A DNA stretch of 4,539 nt. Source: a virus. Lineage: Duplodnaviria; Heunggongvirae; Uroviricota; Caudoviricetes. Below, piece by piece: positions 1 to 4,539 of this stretch (position 1 is its first letter; every line of letters begins with the position of its first letter). The notes below the pieces were generated by a model that was not told where the DNA came from, did no database searches, and saw only the letters and a list, made by a program, of their open reading frames with translations. A program made the position numbers and the translations under genes. The DNA is taken from IMG/VR virus record IMGVR_UViG_2778261274_000003, one strand, 5' to 3'.

Positions 1-56
1 ACACTGAATCTCCCGTCCAAAAGCGCAAATCATGCCATGCAGGCCAGAAACGGCCA

Positions 57-82
57 TTATTTAAAACCTCGGTTTACAGGAA
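57..82. repeat. 26-bp serine-invertase crossover site (gix/cix/hix-like), left boundary of the invertible segment
   Basis: Sequence TTATTTAAAACC-TC-GGTTTACAGGAA is two imperfect inverted 12-bp half-sites around a 2-bp core (69-70). Its reverse-complement partner is at about 2736-2761, sharing the 12-bp block ACCTCGGTTTAC. It closely matches the Gin/Hin-family crossover-site consensus as I recall it. Confidence 0.8.
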
Positions 83-943
83 ACGGTAAACAGGGCTGGT
101 AACGCCGTGCAAAAAAATGGCGATACCTTGTCCGGTGGGCTTACTTTTGAAAATGACTCAATCCTTGCCTGGATTCGAAATACTGACTGGGCGAAGATTG
201 GATTTAAAAATGATGCCGATGGTGACACTGATTCATACATGTGGTTTGAAACAGGCGACAACGGCAATGAATATTTCAAATGGAGAAGCCGCCAGAGCAC
301 CACAACAAAAGACCTGATGACGCTGAAATGGGATGCACTAAATATTCTTGTTAATGCTGTCATTAATGGCAGTCTTGGAGTTGGTTCGACGAATGCGTTA
401 GGTGGTAGCTCTATTGTTCTTGGTGATAATGACACCGGATTTAAACAGAATGGAGACGGTATTCTGGATGTTTATGCTAATAGTCAGCGTGTATTCCGCT
501 TTCAGAATGGAGTGGCTATTGCTTTTAAAAATATTCAGGCCGGGGATGGTAAAAAATTCACGCTATCCAGCTCCAACAACTCCACAAAGAATGCAACGTT
601 TAATTTATGGGGTGCTTCAACCCGTCCAGTAGTTGCAGAGTTAGGCGATGAGGCAGGATGGCATTTCTATAGCCAGCGAAATACAGATAACTCGGTAATA
701 TTTTCTGTTAACGGTCAGATACAGCCCAGCAACTGGGGGAATTTTGATTCACGCTATGTAAAAGATGTTCGCCTGGGTACGCGTGTTGTTCAATTGATGG
801 CGCGTGGTGGTCGTTATGAAAAAGCCGGACACGCAATTACCGGATTAAGAATCATTGGTGAAGTAGATGGCGATGATGAAGCCATCTTCAGACCAATACA
901 AAAATACATCAATGGCACATGGTATAACGTCGCACAGGTGTAA
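71..943 (+). CDS. Silent alternative tail-fibre C-terminal cassette (receptor-binding region, P2 gpH-like); no start codon of its own
   Basis: Open frame from the crossover site to TAA at 941-943. An in-frame TAA at 62-64, inside the outer half-site, closes it upstream. It ends ...RPIQKYINGTWYNVAQV and is followed 3 nt later by a cognate Tfa gene. The ORF-track start at 107 is a GTG inside this frame and is probably not a real start. Confidence 0.8.
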   Translation, partial: GLQETVNRAGNAVQKNGDTLSGGLTFENDSILAWIRNTDWAKIGFKNDADGDTDSYMWFETGDNGNEYFKWRSRQSTTTKDLMTLKWDALNILVNAVINGSLGVGSTNALGGSSIVLGDNDTGFKQNGDGILDVYANSQRVFRFQNGVAIAFKNIQAGDGKKFTLSSSNNSTKNATFNLWGASTRPVVAELGDEAGWHFYSQRNTDNSVIFSVNGQIQPSNWGNFDSRYVKDVRLGTRVVQLMARGGRYEKAGHAITGLRIIGEVDGDDEAIFRPIQKYINGTWYNVAQV

Positions 944-946
944 ATT

Positions 947-1474
947 ATGCAGCATTTAAAAAATATTAAGTCCGGAAATCCAAAAACAAAAGAACAATAT
1001 CAGCTAACAAAGAATTTTGATGTTATCTGGTTATGGTCCGAAGACGGTAAAAACTGGTATGAGGAAGTAAATAACTTTCAGGACGACACCATAAAGATTG
1101 TATACGACGAAAATAATATTATTGTTGCCATAACCAAAGATGCCTCAACGCTTAATCCCGAAGGCTTTAGTGTCGTTGAGATTCCAGATATAACAGCCAA
1201 TCGTCGTGCCGATGATTCAGGGAAGTGGATGTTTAAGGACGGAACTGTGGTTAAGCGGATTTATACAGCAGACGAACAGCAACAACAGGCCGAATCACAA
1301 AAGGTCGCGTTGCTTTCTGAAGCTGAAAGCGTTATTCAGCCACTGGAACGCGCTGTCAGGCTGAATATGGCGACGGATGAGGAACGCACACGACTGGAGT
1401 CATGGGAACGCTACAGCGTTCTGGTCAGCCGTGTGGATACAGCAAATCCCGAATGGCCACAAAAGCCTGAGTAA
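947..1474 (+). CDS. Tail-fibre assembly chaperone (Tfa), 175 aa, P2 gpG / Mu U-like
   Basis: ATG at 947 with AGGTG about 8 nt upstream. The N-terminus [22 protein letters not shown]...DGKNWYEE is the conserved Tfa N-domain. The 175-aa length matches P2 gpG as I recall it. It sits directly after the fibre cassette stop. Confidence 0.85.
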
Positions 1475-1479
1475 AAATT

Positions 1480-1499
1480 AAGGCCCGATATCGGGCCTT
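1480..1499. terminator. Bidirectional intrinsic terminator (20-bp perfect palindrome) between the convergent Tfa genes
   Basis: AAGGCCCGATATCGGGCCTT is a perfect palindrome with a GC-rich 6-bp stem. T-rich tracts follow on both strands (TTCTCTCATTC on plus, TTAATTTTTAC on minus). It lies in the 28-bp gap between the stops at 1474 and 1503. Confidence 0.6.
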
Positions 1500-1502
1500 C
1501 TC

Positions 1503-2036
1503 TCATTCTGGTTGTTCGGGAAACGTTACTGGCAGGCTGGAGGTGTCTGTAGATTCGACTTTCTGCGCAAAGAGCATCCACTCGGTTAATTTCTGCTTAT
1601 TCTCGTCGGAAATGATGCCCAGCCGTAGCTGTGAGTCCCATAGCTGGGTTTTATCCCTGACAAGTTGCAACAGGCTTTGCTTTTCATTTTCCGCTTGTTG
1701 TCTCTGCTCTTCCTCGGTATAAGTTCGCTTTATCACTACGCCATCTTTGAACATCCATTTCCCCGAAATATCAGCCCGGCGATTTGCTGTAATATCAGGT
1801 AATTCAACGACGCTTGCGCCTTCCGGATTAATTGCTGAAACATCCTTTTCAATACAAATAATAACGCCGTTATGGTCATAGACCATTTTCAAAGTGTCTG
1901 GCTGGAAATTCTTTTGTTCCTCATACCAGTTTTTTCCATCATCTGAATAAAGCCATTTGATGTTAAATTGCTTTGTTAGCTGGTATTGCTCTTTTGTTTT
2001 AGGGTTGCCAGCAGTAATGTTTTTTAAGTGCATCAT
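1503..2036 (-). CDS. Tail-fibre assembly chaperone (Tfa), 176-177 aa, cognate to the currently expressed fibre C-terminus
   Basis: ATG-ATG start at 2036/2033 with GGGGAG about 10 nt upstream, 2 nt after the fibre stop. The N-terminus [22 protein letters not shown]...DGKNWYEE is paralogous to the plus-strand Tfa, and the C-terminal third diverges. Confidence 0.85.
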   Translation of the reverse strand: MMHLKNITAGNPKTKEQYQLTKQFNIKWLYSDDGKNWYEEQKNFQPDTLKMVYDHNGVIICIEKDVSAINPEGASVVELPDITANRRADISGKWMFKDGVVIKRTYTEEEQRQQAENEKQSLLQLVRDKTQLWDSQLRLGIISDENKQKLTEWMLFAQKVESTDTSSLPVTFPEQPE

Positions 2037-2038
2037 CG

Positions 2039-3877
2039 TTAAATACTCCCCGCGTTATACCACGTCCCATTAATGCAATACTGAATTGGCCTTGCCTGTG
2101 TTGTATCAATTAATTCATCACGGTTTCCGTTAACTGAACCCGTAACGACATAACCTGACCTGTCAGACCAGCCGGGACCATTCCATGTCTGAACAGATGA
2201 CAGACCGCCAAGGCGAATACCTGTAATAAACCTTGAGTTACATTCTGCCTGCGTATATGCACCAACATCTCCCGCTGAAGGTTTTCGTGTCGTGGTATAG
2301 AAATCTGACCAACCTAATTCAAACCCATAACCATCACGAGCCGACCTGTAGGAAATGCCACCATTTTTATAATTCACACGGAATTGTACGGCAGGACAGC
2401 TACCAGCATTTATATTAAAGTGAAGAATTAATACAGATGCACCACCAATCAGGGCGTTATATGCACCACTATCCCAATTCCATCCAACGGATGTATCACC
2501 ATTAACAGTATTACCTGTTTGTCGGAGTGCAAATGCATTGACATTTTTGGCACTAATTGAAATATCGCTAGAACCATCAAAACCAACTCCAGCAATTTTT
2601 CGTGCTGTTTTCAGCTTTGTTGCAGTAGCGGCATTGCCGGACAGTTCCCCAGAAAGGCCACCGCTGAATGTTTGTCGATTGGTCCAGGTATTCGCTGTAC
2701 TGAGTAACGGTATTTTCTCCCCGCTTGTGCCGAGTTCTCGTAAACCGAGGTATTCGATAACGGCGGCAACGGTCGATTTCGCAAGAATATCCCGCCCGAC
2801 TTTTGTCAGAGTTGCCAGGCTGGCGACATCATTCCCCGTAAAATACGGAAACCTGTCTGCCGCAGTAGCAAGCCCGGCCAGCGCCGTCAGGGTGGCATCT
2901 TTCGGTTGCTTACCCGCAAGCGCGTTAGTCATGGTGGTCGCAAAATTCGGGTCGTTGCCCAGCGCCGCAGCCAGCTCGTTCAGCGTGTTCAGTGCATCAG
3001 GTGACGAATCTACAAGGGCGGCAATCGCAGCCATAACGAAAGCCGTGCTTGCGATTTGGGTATTATTCGTTCCCTGTCGCGCAGTTGGTGTTGTTGGCGT
3101 TCCGGTCAGCGCCGGGCTGTTTAATGGGGCTTTCTTATTTGTTTCATCCATTACTGCCTTAACCGCTTTCGATGTCGCGGCCAGTGTTTCAGACGTGCTG
3201 TTGGTGGCACTACTGAGCTGGACAATCCCTTTTTGTGCCGTCGTGGCGTCCTGAGCGGTATATTTTGCGTTAGCAAGATCATACGCGGCCTTTACCGCTT
3301 TTGGTGTTGCGGCGAGCGTTTCAGAGGTGCTGTTGGTGGCACTACTGAGCTGGACAAGACCTTTTCGCGCTGTAGTGGCGTCCTGTGCGGTATATTTCCC
3401 GTTAGCAAGGTCATAGGCTGCCTTGACCGCTTTCGGCGTTGCGGCCAGTGCTTCAGACGTGCTGTTGGTGGCGCTACTGAGTTGAACAAAGCCTTTTGCG
3501 GTCAGCGAGGCGTCCGGGTGACGTCGTGACTGTTCATGTTCTTTCAGTTTGTCATTCACGTAATCCACTGTGGCCATAACCATGGTGTTATCCACGGTAA
3601 GCGCCACGGTGGCAGTGCTGGATACGGTCAGAATGGTGCGAAATGTTTGTGCACGTCCGGATCCTTCGGCAACGGCTGGCTTGTAACTTTCGGCAGTATT
3701 GCCCACCGCGATCAAATCGCCGTGCTCATCAAATACACCAATTTCCCGGATCCAGAATCCGCCCGTTTCAGGAGGAATAACCAGCTCCGCAATAATGCGG
3801 TTCTGATGTGTTGCGTCCAGGATGACGCGATTAACAGTATGTCGCCACACCTCATGCACCAGACGGGTCTGCTTCAC
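2039..3877 (-). CDS. Tail-fibre protein, 612 aa as currently assembled (constant N-terminal shaft plus invertible C-terminal receptor-binding domain); apparently 5'-truncated
   Basis: Long ORF with a 132-bp tandem repeat region in the shaft. The crossover site is embedded in frame (…AAVIEYLGLRELGTSGEK…). The C-terminal domain contains GELSGNAATATKLKTARK and ends RPIQYCINGTWYNAGSI, typical of lambda Stf / Mu S / P2 H fibres. The start is GTG with no recognisable Shine-Dalgarno, and an in-frame stop lies 5 codons upstream. Confidence 0.85.
   Translation of the reverse strand: MKQTRLVHEVWRHTVNRVILDATHQNRIIAELVIPPETGGFWIREIGVFDEHGDLIAVGNTAESYKPAVAEGSGRAQTFRTILTVSSTATVALTVDNTMVMATVDYVNDKLKEHEQSRRHPDASLTAKGFVQLSSATNSTSEALAATPKAVKAAYDLANGKYTAQDATTARKGLVQLSSATNSTSETLAATPKAVKAAYDLANAKYTAQDATTAQKGIVQLSSATNSTSETLAATSKAVKAVMDETNKKAPLNSPALTGTPTTPTARQGTNNTQIASTAFVMAAIAALVDSSPDALNTLNELAAALGNDPNFATTMTNALAGKQPKDATLTALAGLATAADRFPYFTGNDVASLATLTKVGRDILAKSTVAAVIEYLGLRELGTSGEKIPLLSTANTWTNRQTFSGGLSGELSGNAATATKLKTARKIAGVGFDGSSDISISAKNVNAFALRQTGNTVNGDTSVGWNWDSGAYNALIGGASVLILHFNINAGSCPAVQFRVNYKNGGISYRSARDGYGFELGWSDFYTTTRKPSAGDVGAYTQAECNSRFITGIRLGGLSSVQTWNGPGWSDRSGYVVTGSVNGNRDELIDTTQARPIQYCINGTWYNAGSI
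2736..2761. repeat. 26-bp serine-invertase crossover site (gix/cix/hix-like), right boundary, embedded in the fibre coding sequence
   Basis: Plus strand TTCTCGTAAACC-GA-GGTATTCGATAA; its reverse complement TTATCGAATACC-TC-GGTTTACGAGAA is the inverted partner of 57-82 with the same TC core. It encodes VIEYLGLRE. Coordinates are +/-1 bp because of the frame discrepancy at line boundary 2700/2701. Confidence 0.8.
3152..3496 (-). repeat. In-frame tandem array (about 2.6 copies) of a 132-bp / 44-aa repeat in the fibre shaft
   Basis: Protein repeats KG[FLI]VQLSSATNSTSE[AT]LAATPKAVKAAYDLAN[GA]KYTAQDATTA[RQ]. The DNA block TCAGA(C/G)GTGCTGTTGGTGGC(A/G)CTACTGAG recurs at plus-strand 3189, 3321 and 3453, exactly 132 bp apart. 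Confidence 0.85.
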
Positions 3878-3885
3878 GCAGGGAA

Positions 3886-4206
3886 TCAGTTTTCAGCATG
3901 GCTGTTGTCCTCGTTGTTCAGTCGTTGCAGTCTGCGCTGCTCCAGTAATTCAATGGCCCGTTTATCCGCGTTACAGGTTTCCAGTGCATCCAGAAGGCGG
4001 TCGCCCCATATACCGAGATTTCCCCATGTGGGAGTATCAGGGAAGGGGGGAGGCATTACCGGTATGGTCAGCGTCTGCGGTATAAGCCGGACTGACGGCG
4101 CTGGCCGTGGCGCGTTCTGCGTGCCTGCGCAACCTGTCAGTAAAACGAGCGTCAGGCAAAGCGTGGGCGCATTCATCTTTTGCAATATCGTTGCGTAGCT
4201 GTTCAC
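3886..4206 (-). CDS. o-spanin (Rz1-like outer-membrane lipoprotein), overlapping the i-spanin gene
   Basis: Lipobox L-T-G-C after a hydrophobic stretch (…TLCLTLVLLTGCAG), then a proline-rich segment (APRPAPSVRLIPQTLTIPVMPPPFPDTPT). It starts inside the i-spanin gene in another frame and runs 150 nt past its stop. The GTG at 4206 has GGAGAG upstream; an alternative ATG is at 4176. Confidence 0.65.
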   Translation of the reverse strand: MNSYATILQKMNAPTLCLTLVLLTGCAGTQNAPRPAPSVRLIPQTLTIPVMPPPFPDTPTWGNLGIWGDRLLDALETCNADKRAIELLEQRRLQRLNNEDNSHAEN

Positions 4207-4444
4207 GTCTGGCCTCTCCGTCCTGATTGCGTTGCTGATTTTCCGCGCGGAGTTGTGCCAGCACCTGCTGCATATCCTGTACCCCGGCGCTGATGATATT
4301 CAGGGTGTCGACGGTACTTTTCAGGGTGCTGGCCTGCGCTTCGTTTCTGGCGTTCTCCCGGCCCAGTGACCACGACAGACGCATGGATGCTCCCCAGGCG
4401 GCAATCAGAAGAAAAGCGACGCCCAGCGTGGGCCAGAGCTTCAT
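4037..4444 (-). CDS. i-spanin (Rz-like inner-membrane spanin), about 135 aa
   Basis: Start at ATG 4444 gives an N-terminal transmembrane segment MKLWPTLGVAFLLIAAWGASM followed by charged, coiled-coil-like sequence. The ATG overlaps the upstream gene stop (ATGA), with GGAG about 11 nt upstream. The ORF-track extension to 4513 overlaps the upstream gene frame and reads as non-protein-like. Confidence 0.6.
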   Translation of the reverse strand: MKLWPTLGVAFLLIAAWGASMRLSWSLGRENARNEAQASTLKSTVDTLNIISAGVQDMQQVLAQLRAENQQRNQDGEARREQLRNDIAKDECAHALPDARFTDRLRRHAERATASAVSPAYTADADHTGNASPLP

Positions 4445-4539
4445 GCCGGATAAACTCCGTGCGGTAACTGAAAATGCGGTCCGTCTTTCAGGGTCTTCCA
4501 GTCGCCGCCCCATTCCACCGGAATATTCAGTTCCCGGCT
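4441..4539 (-). CDS. 3' end of the upstream lysis gene, probably an endolysin (partial; continues beyond the right edge)
   Basis: Open frame ending …SRELNIPVEWGGDWKTLKDGPHFQLPHGVYPA* with its TGA overlapping the i-spanin ATG. Its position immediately before the spanin pair is where endolysins sit. The WGGDW…D.PHFQ tail recalls LAS/M15-type peptidase endolysins, but that is from memory only. Confidence 0.4.
   Translation of the reverse strand, partial: SRELNIPVEWGGDWKTLKDGPHFQLPHGVYPA

Follow-up and report, generated by a model that had tools for sequence, protein, structure and literature searches.

The 4,539-nt window, by which we mean the whole stretch of DNA analysed, very probably comes from an E. 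coli-type prophage of the Xuanwuvirus type (P88-like, P2 family) that has suffered one recent 3571-bp deletion and is now defective, its tail-fibre gene being reduced to a pseudogene. A preliminary description of the sequence had proposed that a deletion junction truncates the fibre gene immediately behind a spanin gene. This was borne out, and the junction could be mapped to the nucleotide by comparison with intact prophages. The genes around the junction are all encoded on the minus strand of the window, and the coordinates of the features discussed below are reported in Table 1.

Both DNA identity and a collinear gene order place the window among the Xuanwuvirus-type members of the P2 family. 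A single point divides it into two blocks, each of them collinear with E. coli prophages of the Xuanwuvirus type (P88-like, Peduoviridae) that are intact: positions 1-3874 correspond to positions 6302-10175 of the O145:H28 prophage (L003) with 2 mismatches (99.95% identity), and positions 3871-4539 to positions 9011-9679 of the UTAK-3 lysis region (L001) with 0 mismatches (100% identity). Among the other relatives, Xuanwuvirus xv503458 (NC_049341) covers 77% of the window with 94.5% identity and Xuanwuvirus P884B11 60% of it with 98.7% identity. The best reference differs by side, O145:H28 for the fibre and UTAK-3 for the lysis genes, and none is best for both, so that the exact parent is not on record. 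For the constant part of the fibre, identity is 99.9% to L003 against 96.5% to L001; for the lysis side it is 100% to L001 against 98.1% to L003; and the invertible segment matches a third strain, L022, at 100%. Alleles are mosaic among the intact prophages of this group, and such mixtures are normal. Moreover, E. coli genomes with a prophage of this kind often hold more than one related copy (median of 2 matching places per genome), as in the genome shared by L010 and L011 and in that shared by L014 and L015.

The blocks flanking the junction lie 3571 bp apart in both L001 and L003. This interval comprises gpR from codon 11 to its end, the five complete genes S, V, W, J and I, and H as far as codon 50. 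The window has no complete R, S, V, W, J, I module between its lysis and fibre genes, all six being absent, while they are found at this position in the three reference prophages and in 15 of 16 further contexts of the same prophage type. It had been noted that the tail and baseplate genes normally separating the lysis cassette from the fibre are missing, and the comparison with relatives agrees, as S, V, W, J, I and most of R are absent; the sheath and tube genes of the relatives are found on the far side of the invertase and do not belong to this lysis-to-fibre interval. The further genomic contexts fetched (n = 20) comprised 16 Xuanwuvirus-type prophages and 4 Mu-like ones with only the invertible segment in common. 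The order spanins, R, S, V, W, J, I, fibre was present in 15 of these 16 prophages, the sixteenth, L027, having decayed differently. Other forms of decay were also observed in this prophage type: L027 displays an IS insertion and a truncation, P0157 is a fibre-capsid fusion protein, and P0151 and P0170 are frameshifted fibres.

At the nucleotide level, the fibre-side and lysis-side reference matches overlap in a 4-nt microhomology, GCTT on the plus strand and AAGC on the minus strand, which is common to codons 9-10 of gpR and codons 51-52 of H. It is enclosed by an imperfect 12/14-nt direct repeat (3863-3874), of which the copy at the gpR 5' end is ACGGGTCATGGCTT and that in H, at codons 51-54, is ACGGGTCTGCTT. 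The resulting fusion of R to H is out of frame, 3571 not being divisible by 3. When a 1140-bp query spanning the junction was searched against 5426 complete E. coli genomes, 0 places covered at least 80% of the query, and none was found among the PLSDB plasmids. The exact junction 37-mer and 26-mer (CCAGACGGGTCTGCTTCACGCAGGGA) are absent from the GTDB species representatives, IMG/VR and the JGI metagenomes, the exact 612-amino-acid product (with V or M as first residue) is not in the gene collection, and the junction occurs in 0 of the 20 further contexts, which had been found via the i-spanin and silent cassette proteins. A junction 21-mer matched two Phenylobacterium contigs only, and these were taken as chance matches, about 0.3 being expected in 596 Gb.

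Table 1. Features of the window, with the observations on which each assignment is based.
Feature	Position	Strand	Basis and remarks
Left crossover site	53..82	.	Inverted repeat I3, 30 nt, 80% complementary to 2735-2764
Alternative fibre C-terminal cassette, P2 gpH-type tip, promoterless	83..943	+	ORF open from crossover site; PF21446 match
Alternative tail fibre assembly gene, silent orientation	947..1474	+	PF02413, E = 2.5e-36
GC-rich hairpin and T-run between convergent tfa genes, likely terminator	1480..1499	-	8-bp stem, 6 G-C pairs
Tail fibre assembly (chaperone) gene of the currently expressed tip	1503..2036	-	PF02413 Caudo_TAP, E = 4.8e-36
Truncated tail-fibre ORF (H')	2039..3877	-	612 codons, GTG start; 3874-2039 = codons 51-661 of the parental gpH-type fibre
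Right crossover site, inside the fibre gene	2735..2764	.	Inverted repeat I3
Three tandem 132-nt repeats, fibre shaft (Phage_fiber_2)	3156..3551	-	Direct-repeat family D1; PF03406 x3, E = 9.8e-61
gpR stub	3852..3899	-	Native ATG 3899, SD GAGG; alignment with intact gpR 5' ends, translation, SD energy
Deletion junction	3871..3874	.	Fibre-side reference match ends at 3874, lysis-side exact match starts at 3871
o-spanin LysC, Rz1-like lipoprotein	3886..4176	-	Lipobox LLTGC; PF23793 LysC, E = 1.8e-13; lysC annotated in relatives
i-spanin, LysB-like, DUF2570, 135 aa, intact	4037..4444	-	DNA 100% identical to UTAK-3 prophage
Endolysin 3' end (M15 family metallopeptidase), cut by window end	4441..4539	-	PF13539 Peptidase_M15_4 positions 53-70 of 70; collinear with annotated genes

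The consequence for the fibre protein is the loss of its N-terminus. The preliminary description had estimated that about 45-55 residues are lacking, and the alignment with the nearest relatives, whose full-length fibres have 661 amino acids, sets the number at exactly 50 codons. H' does not hold a complete PF12571 N-terminal tail-collar fibre baseplate-attachment domain: its match spans profile positions 47-149 of 150, compared with 3-149 in a full-length 661-amino-acid relative, and H' is thus devoid of about a third of this domain. Full-length homologues starting at the same position, named beforehand as the observation that would speak against a truncation, were looked for among the 150 best homologues drawn from 1.84 billion representatives and none was genuine: 146 have N-termini longer by 44-50 residues, and the other 4 are fragments, cut at a contig edge or contaminated with adapter. 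The idea of a shorter isoform occurring naturally, or of an alternative fibre start, was rejected because these homologues do not start there. The 50 deleted residues are conserved across the family, including the motif MAVGDGGG, and an AlphaFold model folds them as strand, helix and strand, the block-mean pLDDT being 63-92 overall and 88-92 in the blocks holding these elements. Searching the PDB by sequence with the full N-terminal domain gave no match, and a Foldseek search with the AlphaFold model found baseplate and tail proteins at weak similarity only (TM about 0.4), namely the HFTV1 tail, the phi812 baseplate and A511 gp105, which would be consistent with, rather than strongly indicative of, a baseplate-associated role. 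As for the proposed likeness of the N-terminus to P2 H and Mu S, it held for P2 gpH, residue 3 of H' aligning with gpH residue 49, and failed for Mu S, which has only the fibre repeats and the tip in common with H' and was rejected as a comparator for the N-terminus on this account. By these alignments, the missing N-terminal domain is of the P2 gpH type and not of the Mu S type.

The remaining ORF is open for 612 codons from GTG 3877 to position 2039 on the minus strand, as had been described. According to the junction alignment, this GTG (3877-3875) is a fortuitous start, lying in gpR-derived sequence read in another frame, and is not a fibre codon. Its adjacency to the TGA of the o-spanin gene was also correctly seen, although the two are separated by 8 nt (3885-3878) and not by 9, as was the in-frame stop five codons upstream (TGA 3895-3893, followed by the sense codons K L I P C and then GTG). 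Nor is there a Shine-Dalgarno (SD) sequence, again in agreement with the preliminary description: the 17 nt upstream of GTG 3877 have no anti-SD complementarity (+0.4 kcal/mol), compared with -5.9 kcal/mol for the gpR start and -7.6 kcal/mol for the tfa start. The stub that follows the gpR start holds native codons 1-10, of which 9 are gpR sequence alone, and continues into fibre sequence out of frame, making a 15-codon dead-end (MLKTDSLREADPSGA followed by a stop). The stop codon of the stub (3854-3852) falls within a few nucleotides of in-frame GTGs of H' at 3859 and 3850. None of the three candidate starts of H' has a usable SD (+0.4, -1.9 and -2.8 kcal/mol), and the native translation start coupled to gene I is lost, the native ATG and gene I both being deleted. 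A promoter-like site between the spanins and H', a terminator-like site between the lysis genes and H', and, using Rfam, an RNA family in the window were sought and none was found. A programmed frameshift leading from the gpR stub into H' was considered and rejected, as no slippery heptamer was seen on reading the sequence of the stub. Judged from its sequence context, H' is probably not translated.

Beyond the junction, the modules on both sides keep their usual form. The lysis side encodes a two-component overlapped spanin of the LysB/LysC kind, the o-spanin gene overlapping that of the i-spanin and ending in NSHAEN with the TGA at 3888-3886. The DUF2570 match of the i-spanin is weak (PF10828, 20.7 bits, below the 26.6 cut-off), and its exact protein is recorded in 5458 blocks of the collection; the o-spanin start, ATG 4176, was read from the ORF together with the lipobox, and RefSeq annotations start elsewhere. 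On the other side, the fibre shaft and tip are followed by tfa (three PF03406 repeats, a weak gp37_C tip match and PF02413 immediately 3'). The inversion switch downstream had been described as fully intact, and indeed a segment of the Gin/Cin/Pin type is present, with both inverted crossover sites, two fibre C-termini and two chaperone genes intact and in frame. Segment 53-2764 is oppositely oriented in UTAK-3, with exactly these boundaries, and after inversion the silent cassette, whose exact 278-amino-acid product is recorded in 506 collection blocks, would join the constant part in frame (3877 - 2710 is divisible by 3). In the relatives, the recombinase gene begins directly beyond the left end of the window (position 1), and the invertase is thus outside the window.

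We propose illegitimate recombination between the imperfect direct repeats as the origin of the deletion, through replication slippage or microhomology-mediated end joining, with the crossover in GCTT. Such an event would have cost the prophage gpR from codon 11, the tail completion gene gpS, four baseplate genes (V, W, J and I) and H as far as codon 50. Ribosomes starting at the surviving gpR site would make a 15-residue peptide and then stop, H' would be left with neither its native start nor a ribosome-binding site, and hence as a pseudogene, and neither baseplate nor tail could be formed by the prophage. Decay would not yet have reached the lysis cassette, the shaft and tips of the fibre, the chaperones or the inversion sites. 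As the flanks are 99.95-100% identical to intact prophages, the deletion is probably recent, and the lysis, fibre, chaperone and inversion parts probably look intact because too little time has elapsed for further decay, so that the intact switch is no paradox. We conclude that the deletion is recent and strain-specific.

The same product might have been reached by another route, namely illegitimate recombination between two co-resident prophages, one providing an O145:H28-like fibre region and the other a UTAK-3-like lysis region. The unequal identities of the two sides (fibre constant part 99.9% to L003 against 96.5% to L001, lysis side 100% to L001 against 98.1% to L003) and the frequent presence of several related prophages in one genome (L010 with L011, L014 with L015) are in its favour. 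However, an exchange between chromosomal sites would yield a large deletion or inversion, which is less parsimonious than an internal deletion of 3.6 kb, and the allele mosaicism among intact prophages, exemplified by the segment 100% identical to L022, already explains the pattern; we regard this route as unlikely. Still less probable is a junction of non-biological origin, in which assembly, a chimeric read or cloning would have united parts of an intact prophage. Such an artefact would explain why the junction is in no other public sequence searched, why the exact 612-amino-acid product is absent from the gene collection and why the closest reference strain differs between the sides. Nevertheless, the 4 nt shared (12/14 in the imperfect repeat) are far too short to mislead an assembler and are typical of deletions by illegitimate recombination, the flanks keep the orientation and order of the intact prophage, as a simple deletion predicts, and mosaic alleles, such as the invertible segment identical to a third strain, are normal in these prophages.

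We consider it just as improbable that the truncated fibre is expressed and functional, starting at GTG 3877 or through reinitiation at GTG 3859 or 3850 after the gpR stub, and is either donated to the tails of a co-resident P2-like prophage or set free by the neighbouring lysis cassette as a phase-variable receptor-binding protein. An ORF open for 612 codons with intact tips, chaperones and inversion sites could be expected of such a protein, H' is co-oriented with the late lysis genes and lies directly downstream of them with no terminator-like site between, the stop of the stub is near two in-frame GTGs, and related prophage copies are often multiple in an E. coli genome (median of 2 matching places). 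These features are outweighed by the lack of a usable SD at every candidate start, the loss of the conserved third of the baseplate-attachment domain, an architecture that is unique (0 of 5426 complete E. coli genomes, 0 of 20 further contexts) and a fusion that is out of frame, as an accident would give; moreover, the recency implied by the 99.95-100% identity to intact prophages accounts for the intact look. Marginally less credible again is the idea that the deletion created a working lysis-plus-fibre module, in which a headless fibre would still be produced, for instance through reinitiation once the 15-codon stub has been translated, and would act without a baseplate of its own. If this were true, a P2-like phage resident in the same host could use H' as a spare fibre, or the neighbouring lysis cassette would release it as a phase-variable receptor-binding protein. 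A minimal lysis-plus-fibre module had been offered as an alternative in the preliminary description and found no support: the reading frame is broken at the fusion, a ribosome-binding site is lacking, and no other genome searched has this arrangement.

With a single internal deletion as the preferred explanation, the event is ordinary prophage decay and has little significance beyond annotation. The 612-codon ORF would best be annotated as a 5'-truncated pseudogene instead of a new module or a short fibre of a novel kind; the prophage would be entered as defective, without baseplate or tail-completion genes. The window would provide a nucleotide-resolved example of prophage inactivation by microhomology-mediated deletion, and illustrates that a junction can create a deceptive start codon out of the other parent gene. 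Being strain-specific, the junction is also a possible lineage marker if the source strain is epidemiologically relevant.

The closest known systems are the Xuanwuvirus (P88-like Peduoviridae) prophages 503458 (NC_049341), O145:H28 strain 16003 and UTAK-3, which have the same genes in the same order with 94.5-100% DNA identity. They share with the window the M15 endolysin, the DUF2570 i-spanin, the LysC o-spanin, the gpH-type fibre, the two tfa genes, the alternative tip and the Gin/Pin-type crossover sites, but all three hold the 3571 bp that the window lacks. In this loss the window resembles defective or cryptic E. coli prophages with internal deletions, which likewise lose essential morphogenesis genes and keep neighbouring modules, with the junction at short homology; compared with these, its junction is very young, judging by flanks that match intact phages at 99.95-100% identity, and is in no other genome searched. 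In P2, where the lysis-tail order is lysB-lysC-R-S-(orf30)-V-W-J-I-H-G, the fibre gpH (NP_046775) aligns with that of the window from gpH residue 49, with about 66% identity in the shared part of the N-terminal domain and near-identity in the shaft; relative to gpH, 46-47 residues are missing from the window fibre, and the gpH tip resembles the silent cassette. P2 differs from the window in its endolysin (K), in having a separate promoter region for the V operon and in the absence of an invertible segment. The switch itself is homologous to the Mu G, P1 C and e14 P segments, inverted by Gin, Cin and Pin, respectively, in which two tips and two chaperones lie between inverted crossover sites, and the invertible segment has about 90-94% DNA identity to those of Mu, D108, P1, P7 and D6. 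Unlike in Mu, however, the constant part of the fibre that it serves is of the P2 gpH type and not of the Mu S type.

Megablast against phage genomes assigned the window to the Xuanwuvirus group of the Peduoviridae, which comprises P88-like phages of the P2 family, with 94.5% identity to Escherichia phage 503458 and 98.7% identity, over the invertible segment, to Xuanwuvirus P884B11. The same gene order was found in the prophage of E. coli UTAK-3 (L001), phage 503458 (L002) and the prophage of O145:H28 strain 16003 (L003): holin, M15 endolysin, DUF2570, LysC, gpR-like, gpS-like, V, W, J, I and fibre, followed by tfa, tfa', alternative tip, invertase, gpU and tape measure. Twenty further contexts were obtained via exact-protein look-ups; 16 are prophages of Xuanwuvirus type, 15 of them with identical gene order and the sixteenth (L027) decayed differently, and the remaining four are Mu-like prophages whose similarity is confined to the invertible segment. 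Among 5426 complete E. coli genomes, close matches to the fibre side and to the lysis side number in the hundreds each, but the two sides are adjacent in none of them, and a 1140-bp query across the junction gave 0 places with coverage of at least 80%.

Features of the window, with coordinates and strand
Feature	Position	Strand	Remark
M15-family endolysin, 3' end	4539-4441	minus	
i-spanin, DUF2570 (LysB-like)	4444-4037	minus	
o-spanin LysC (Rz1-like)	TGA stop 3888-3886	minus	overlaps i-spanin
Fibre ORF	3877-2039	minus	612 codons; GTG first codon
Tail-fibre assembly gene (tfa)	2036-1503	minus	
Likely terminator	1480-1499		GC-rich hairpin AAGGCCCGATATCGGGCCTT then T-run, between convergent tfa genes
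Second tfa gene	947-1474	plus	
Alternative fibre tip	open ~83 to 943	plus	promoterless
Inverted 30-nt sites	53-82 and 2735-2764		bound the invertible segment

Window positions 1-3874 correspond to L003 6302-10175 with two mismatches (positions 597 and 3326), and positions 3871-4539 to L001 9011-9679 with none; the gap between both blocks is 3571 bp in L001 and L003 alike. The parental sequences, given for the minus strand, are CTGCGTGAAGCCATGACCCGT for gpR codons 7-13 and GACAGTAAGCAGACCCGTCTG for H codons 49-55, and the window junction reads CTGCGTGAAGCAGACCCGTCTG. Comparison of the three places the crossover in the AAGC common to both parents (plus-strand GCTT, 3871-3874), inside an imperfect direct repeat of 12 of 14 nt, ACGGGTC[AT]G/TGCTT on the plus strand. 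This signature, as read from the junction, points to a microhomology-mediated (illegitimate) deletion. An exact match to a 21-nt pattern across the junction in two Phenylobacterium contigs (L004, 394-414; L005, 5335-5355) was judged to be due to chance, being a GC-rich 21-mer in 596 Gb.

The deletion removed gpR from codon 11, the genes S, V, W, J and I in full, and the first 50 codons of H. The gpR start (ATG 3899, preceded by GAGG) is retained and its product is now MLKTDSLREADPSGA, with the stop at 3854-3852; since 3571 is not divisible by three, R and H are fused out of frame. What the preliminary description states on the sequence itself holds, its spacing of 9 nt to within one base: the fibre ORF opens with GTG at 3877, 8 nt lie between the o-spanin TGA and this codon, an in-frame TGA is found five sense codons upstream, and there is no Shine-Dalgarno sequence, the anti-SD pairing energy being +0.4 kcal/mol as compared with -5.9 kcal/mol for the gpR start and -7.6 kcal/mol for the tfa start. 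The GTG lies in gpR-derived sequence (C-GTG-AAG inside the gpR codons CGT GAA) and takes the place of H codon 50 (AGT), so that the apparent start is a by-product of the junction. Full-length relatives have 661 aa, and 661 - 50 + 1 gives exactly the 612 codons of the ORF.

The loss is also visible at the protein level. The window protein matches positions 47-149 of the 150 of PF12571 (Phage tail-collar fibre protein, N-terminal; formerly DUF3751), and a 661-aa relative matches positions 3-149. With the first 126 residues as query, HMMER retrieved 4737 homologues from 1.84 billion cluster representatives; in 146 of the top 150, residue 2-3 of the query aligns with hit residue 45-51. Of the four exceptions, two are contig-edge fragments that lack a start codon, one is a short fragment whose C-terminus is scrambled, and one is a read-level fragment carrying translated Nextera adapter. 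The alignment with P2 gpH begins at gpH residue 49. The N-terminal resemblance proposed earlier thus holds for P2 gpH and not for Mu S, which does not share the domain at all and was discarded as a comparator. The deleted 50 residues are conserved in the family (K-x-x-T-x-x-T-x-x-G-x-x-K-L-A ... MAVGDGGG ... P-x-P-D), and an AlphaFold2 model of the whole domain (mean pLDDT 72) predicts for them a strand at 10-12, a helix at 14-23 and a second strand at 33-39. Mean pLDDT in 10-residue blocks over residues 1-50 ranges from 63 to 92, with 88-92 in the blocks containing these elements; Foldseek with this model found only weak similarity, to other phages' baseplate and tail proteins.

Further along the fibre, the shaft contains three tandem 132-nt repeats (3156-3551; 100%, 86% and 64% identity to the first) that encode Phage_fiber_2 repeats, whereas P2 gpH has one such repeat fewer, seen as a 44-residue alignment gap. 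Relatives are 422 to 729 aa long, suggesting variation in both repeat number and tips. A perfect 16-nt inverted repeat, CGGCCAGCGCCGTCAG, pairs 2875-2890 in the fibre gene with 4092-4107 in the region of spanin overlap, against an expectation of none from 200 shuffles. It must occur in intact prophages too, with arms 3.6 kb further apart, and could have arisen by chance in GC-rich coding sequence. The lysC starts in RefSeq differ among near-identical prophages, giving 89 aa in one and 65 aa in another, with no call in several genomes (compared over window 3886-4206, L001 9026-9295 and L003 13758-13955); the lipobox LLTGC together with ATG 4176 suggests a product of ~96 aa.

The remainder looks intact, probably because there was no time for further decay, as the flanks share 99.95-100% identity with functional-looking prophages. 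The invertible segment (53-2764) recurs at 100% identity in another strain (L022, GCA_051663225.1) and is reversed in UTAK-3 (L001 1622-4333), ending exactly at the 30-nt inverted sites, which shows directly that the switch operates in this prophage group. By coordinate arithmetic, the silent tip would be in frame with the constant part after inversion, the frame being open from the crossover site. In relatives the invertase gene is found just to the left of window position 1. In the present orientation the hairpin between the tfa genes is likely to serve as terminator for the fibre operon. The segment also occurs, at 94% identity, in the Mu-like prophages L021, L023, L024 and L026, and is thus a cassette common to P2-like and Mu-like phages.

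A functional short fibre, or 'lysis-plus-fibre module', is disfavoured by the missing ribosome-binding site, the out-of-frame R-H fusion, the loss of a conserved part of the attachment domain and an architecture unique among the genomes searched. An assembly artefact is improbable: a shared 4 nt is too short to lead an assembler astray, and the arrangement of the flanks is what a simple deletion would leave. Two co-resident prophages could possibly have recombined to give the same junction, as the best-matching references differ on the two sides: no single one is best throughout, the closest being strain 16003 for the fibre constant part (99.9%), GCA_051663225.1 for the invertible segment (100%) and UTAK-3 for the lysis genes (100%). 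However, such allele mosaicism is normal in this group, and this route is less parsimonious than an internal deletion.

Other forms of decay are found in the same family. In L027 (12612-15527; GCA_964199995.1), where a prophage of this type has decayed independently, the fibre gene carries an inserted DDE transposase, gene I has been cut down to 135 aa with an integrase and host genes directly after, and the lysis-to-J region is entirely gone. P0157, a 203-aa E. coli protein, joins fibre residues 1 to ~155 to a fragment of a P2-type major capsid protein (PF12571 plus PF05125) and so marks another deletion junction in this family; the fibre also occurs in frameshifted form, as P0151 and as P0170 (the latter named 'Bcv gene product').

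Taken together, our results support the 5' truncation and deletion junction of the preliminary description, with P2 gpH as the comparator and the GTG derived from gpR: the missing domain is of the P2 gpH type and not that of Mu S, and the sheath, tube and invertase genes lie outside the window's reach. The junction itself was absent from all collections searched (the 5426 complete E. coli genomes, PLSDB plasmids, GTDB representatives, IMG/VR and JGI metagenomes) and is mechanistically nothing new; the window belongs to a P2-family prophage that an internal deletion has made defective, a familiar outcome.
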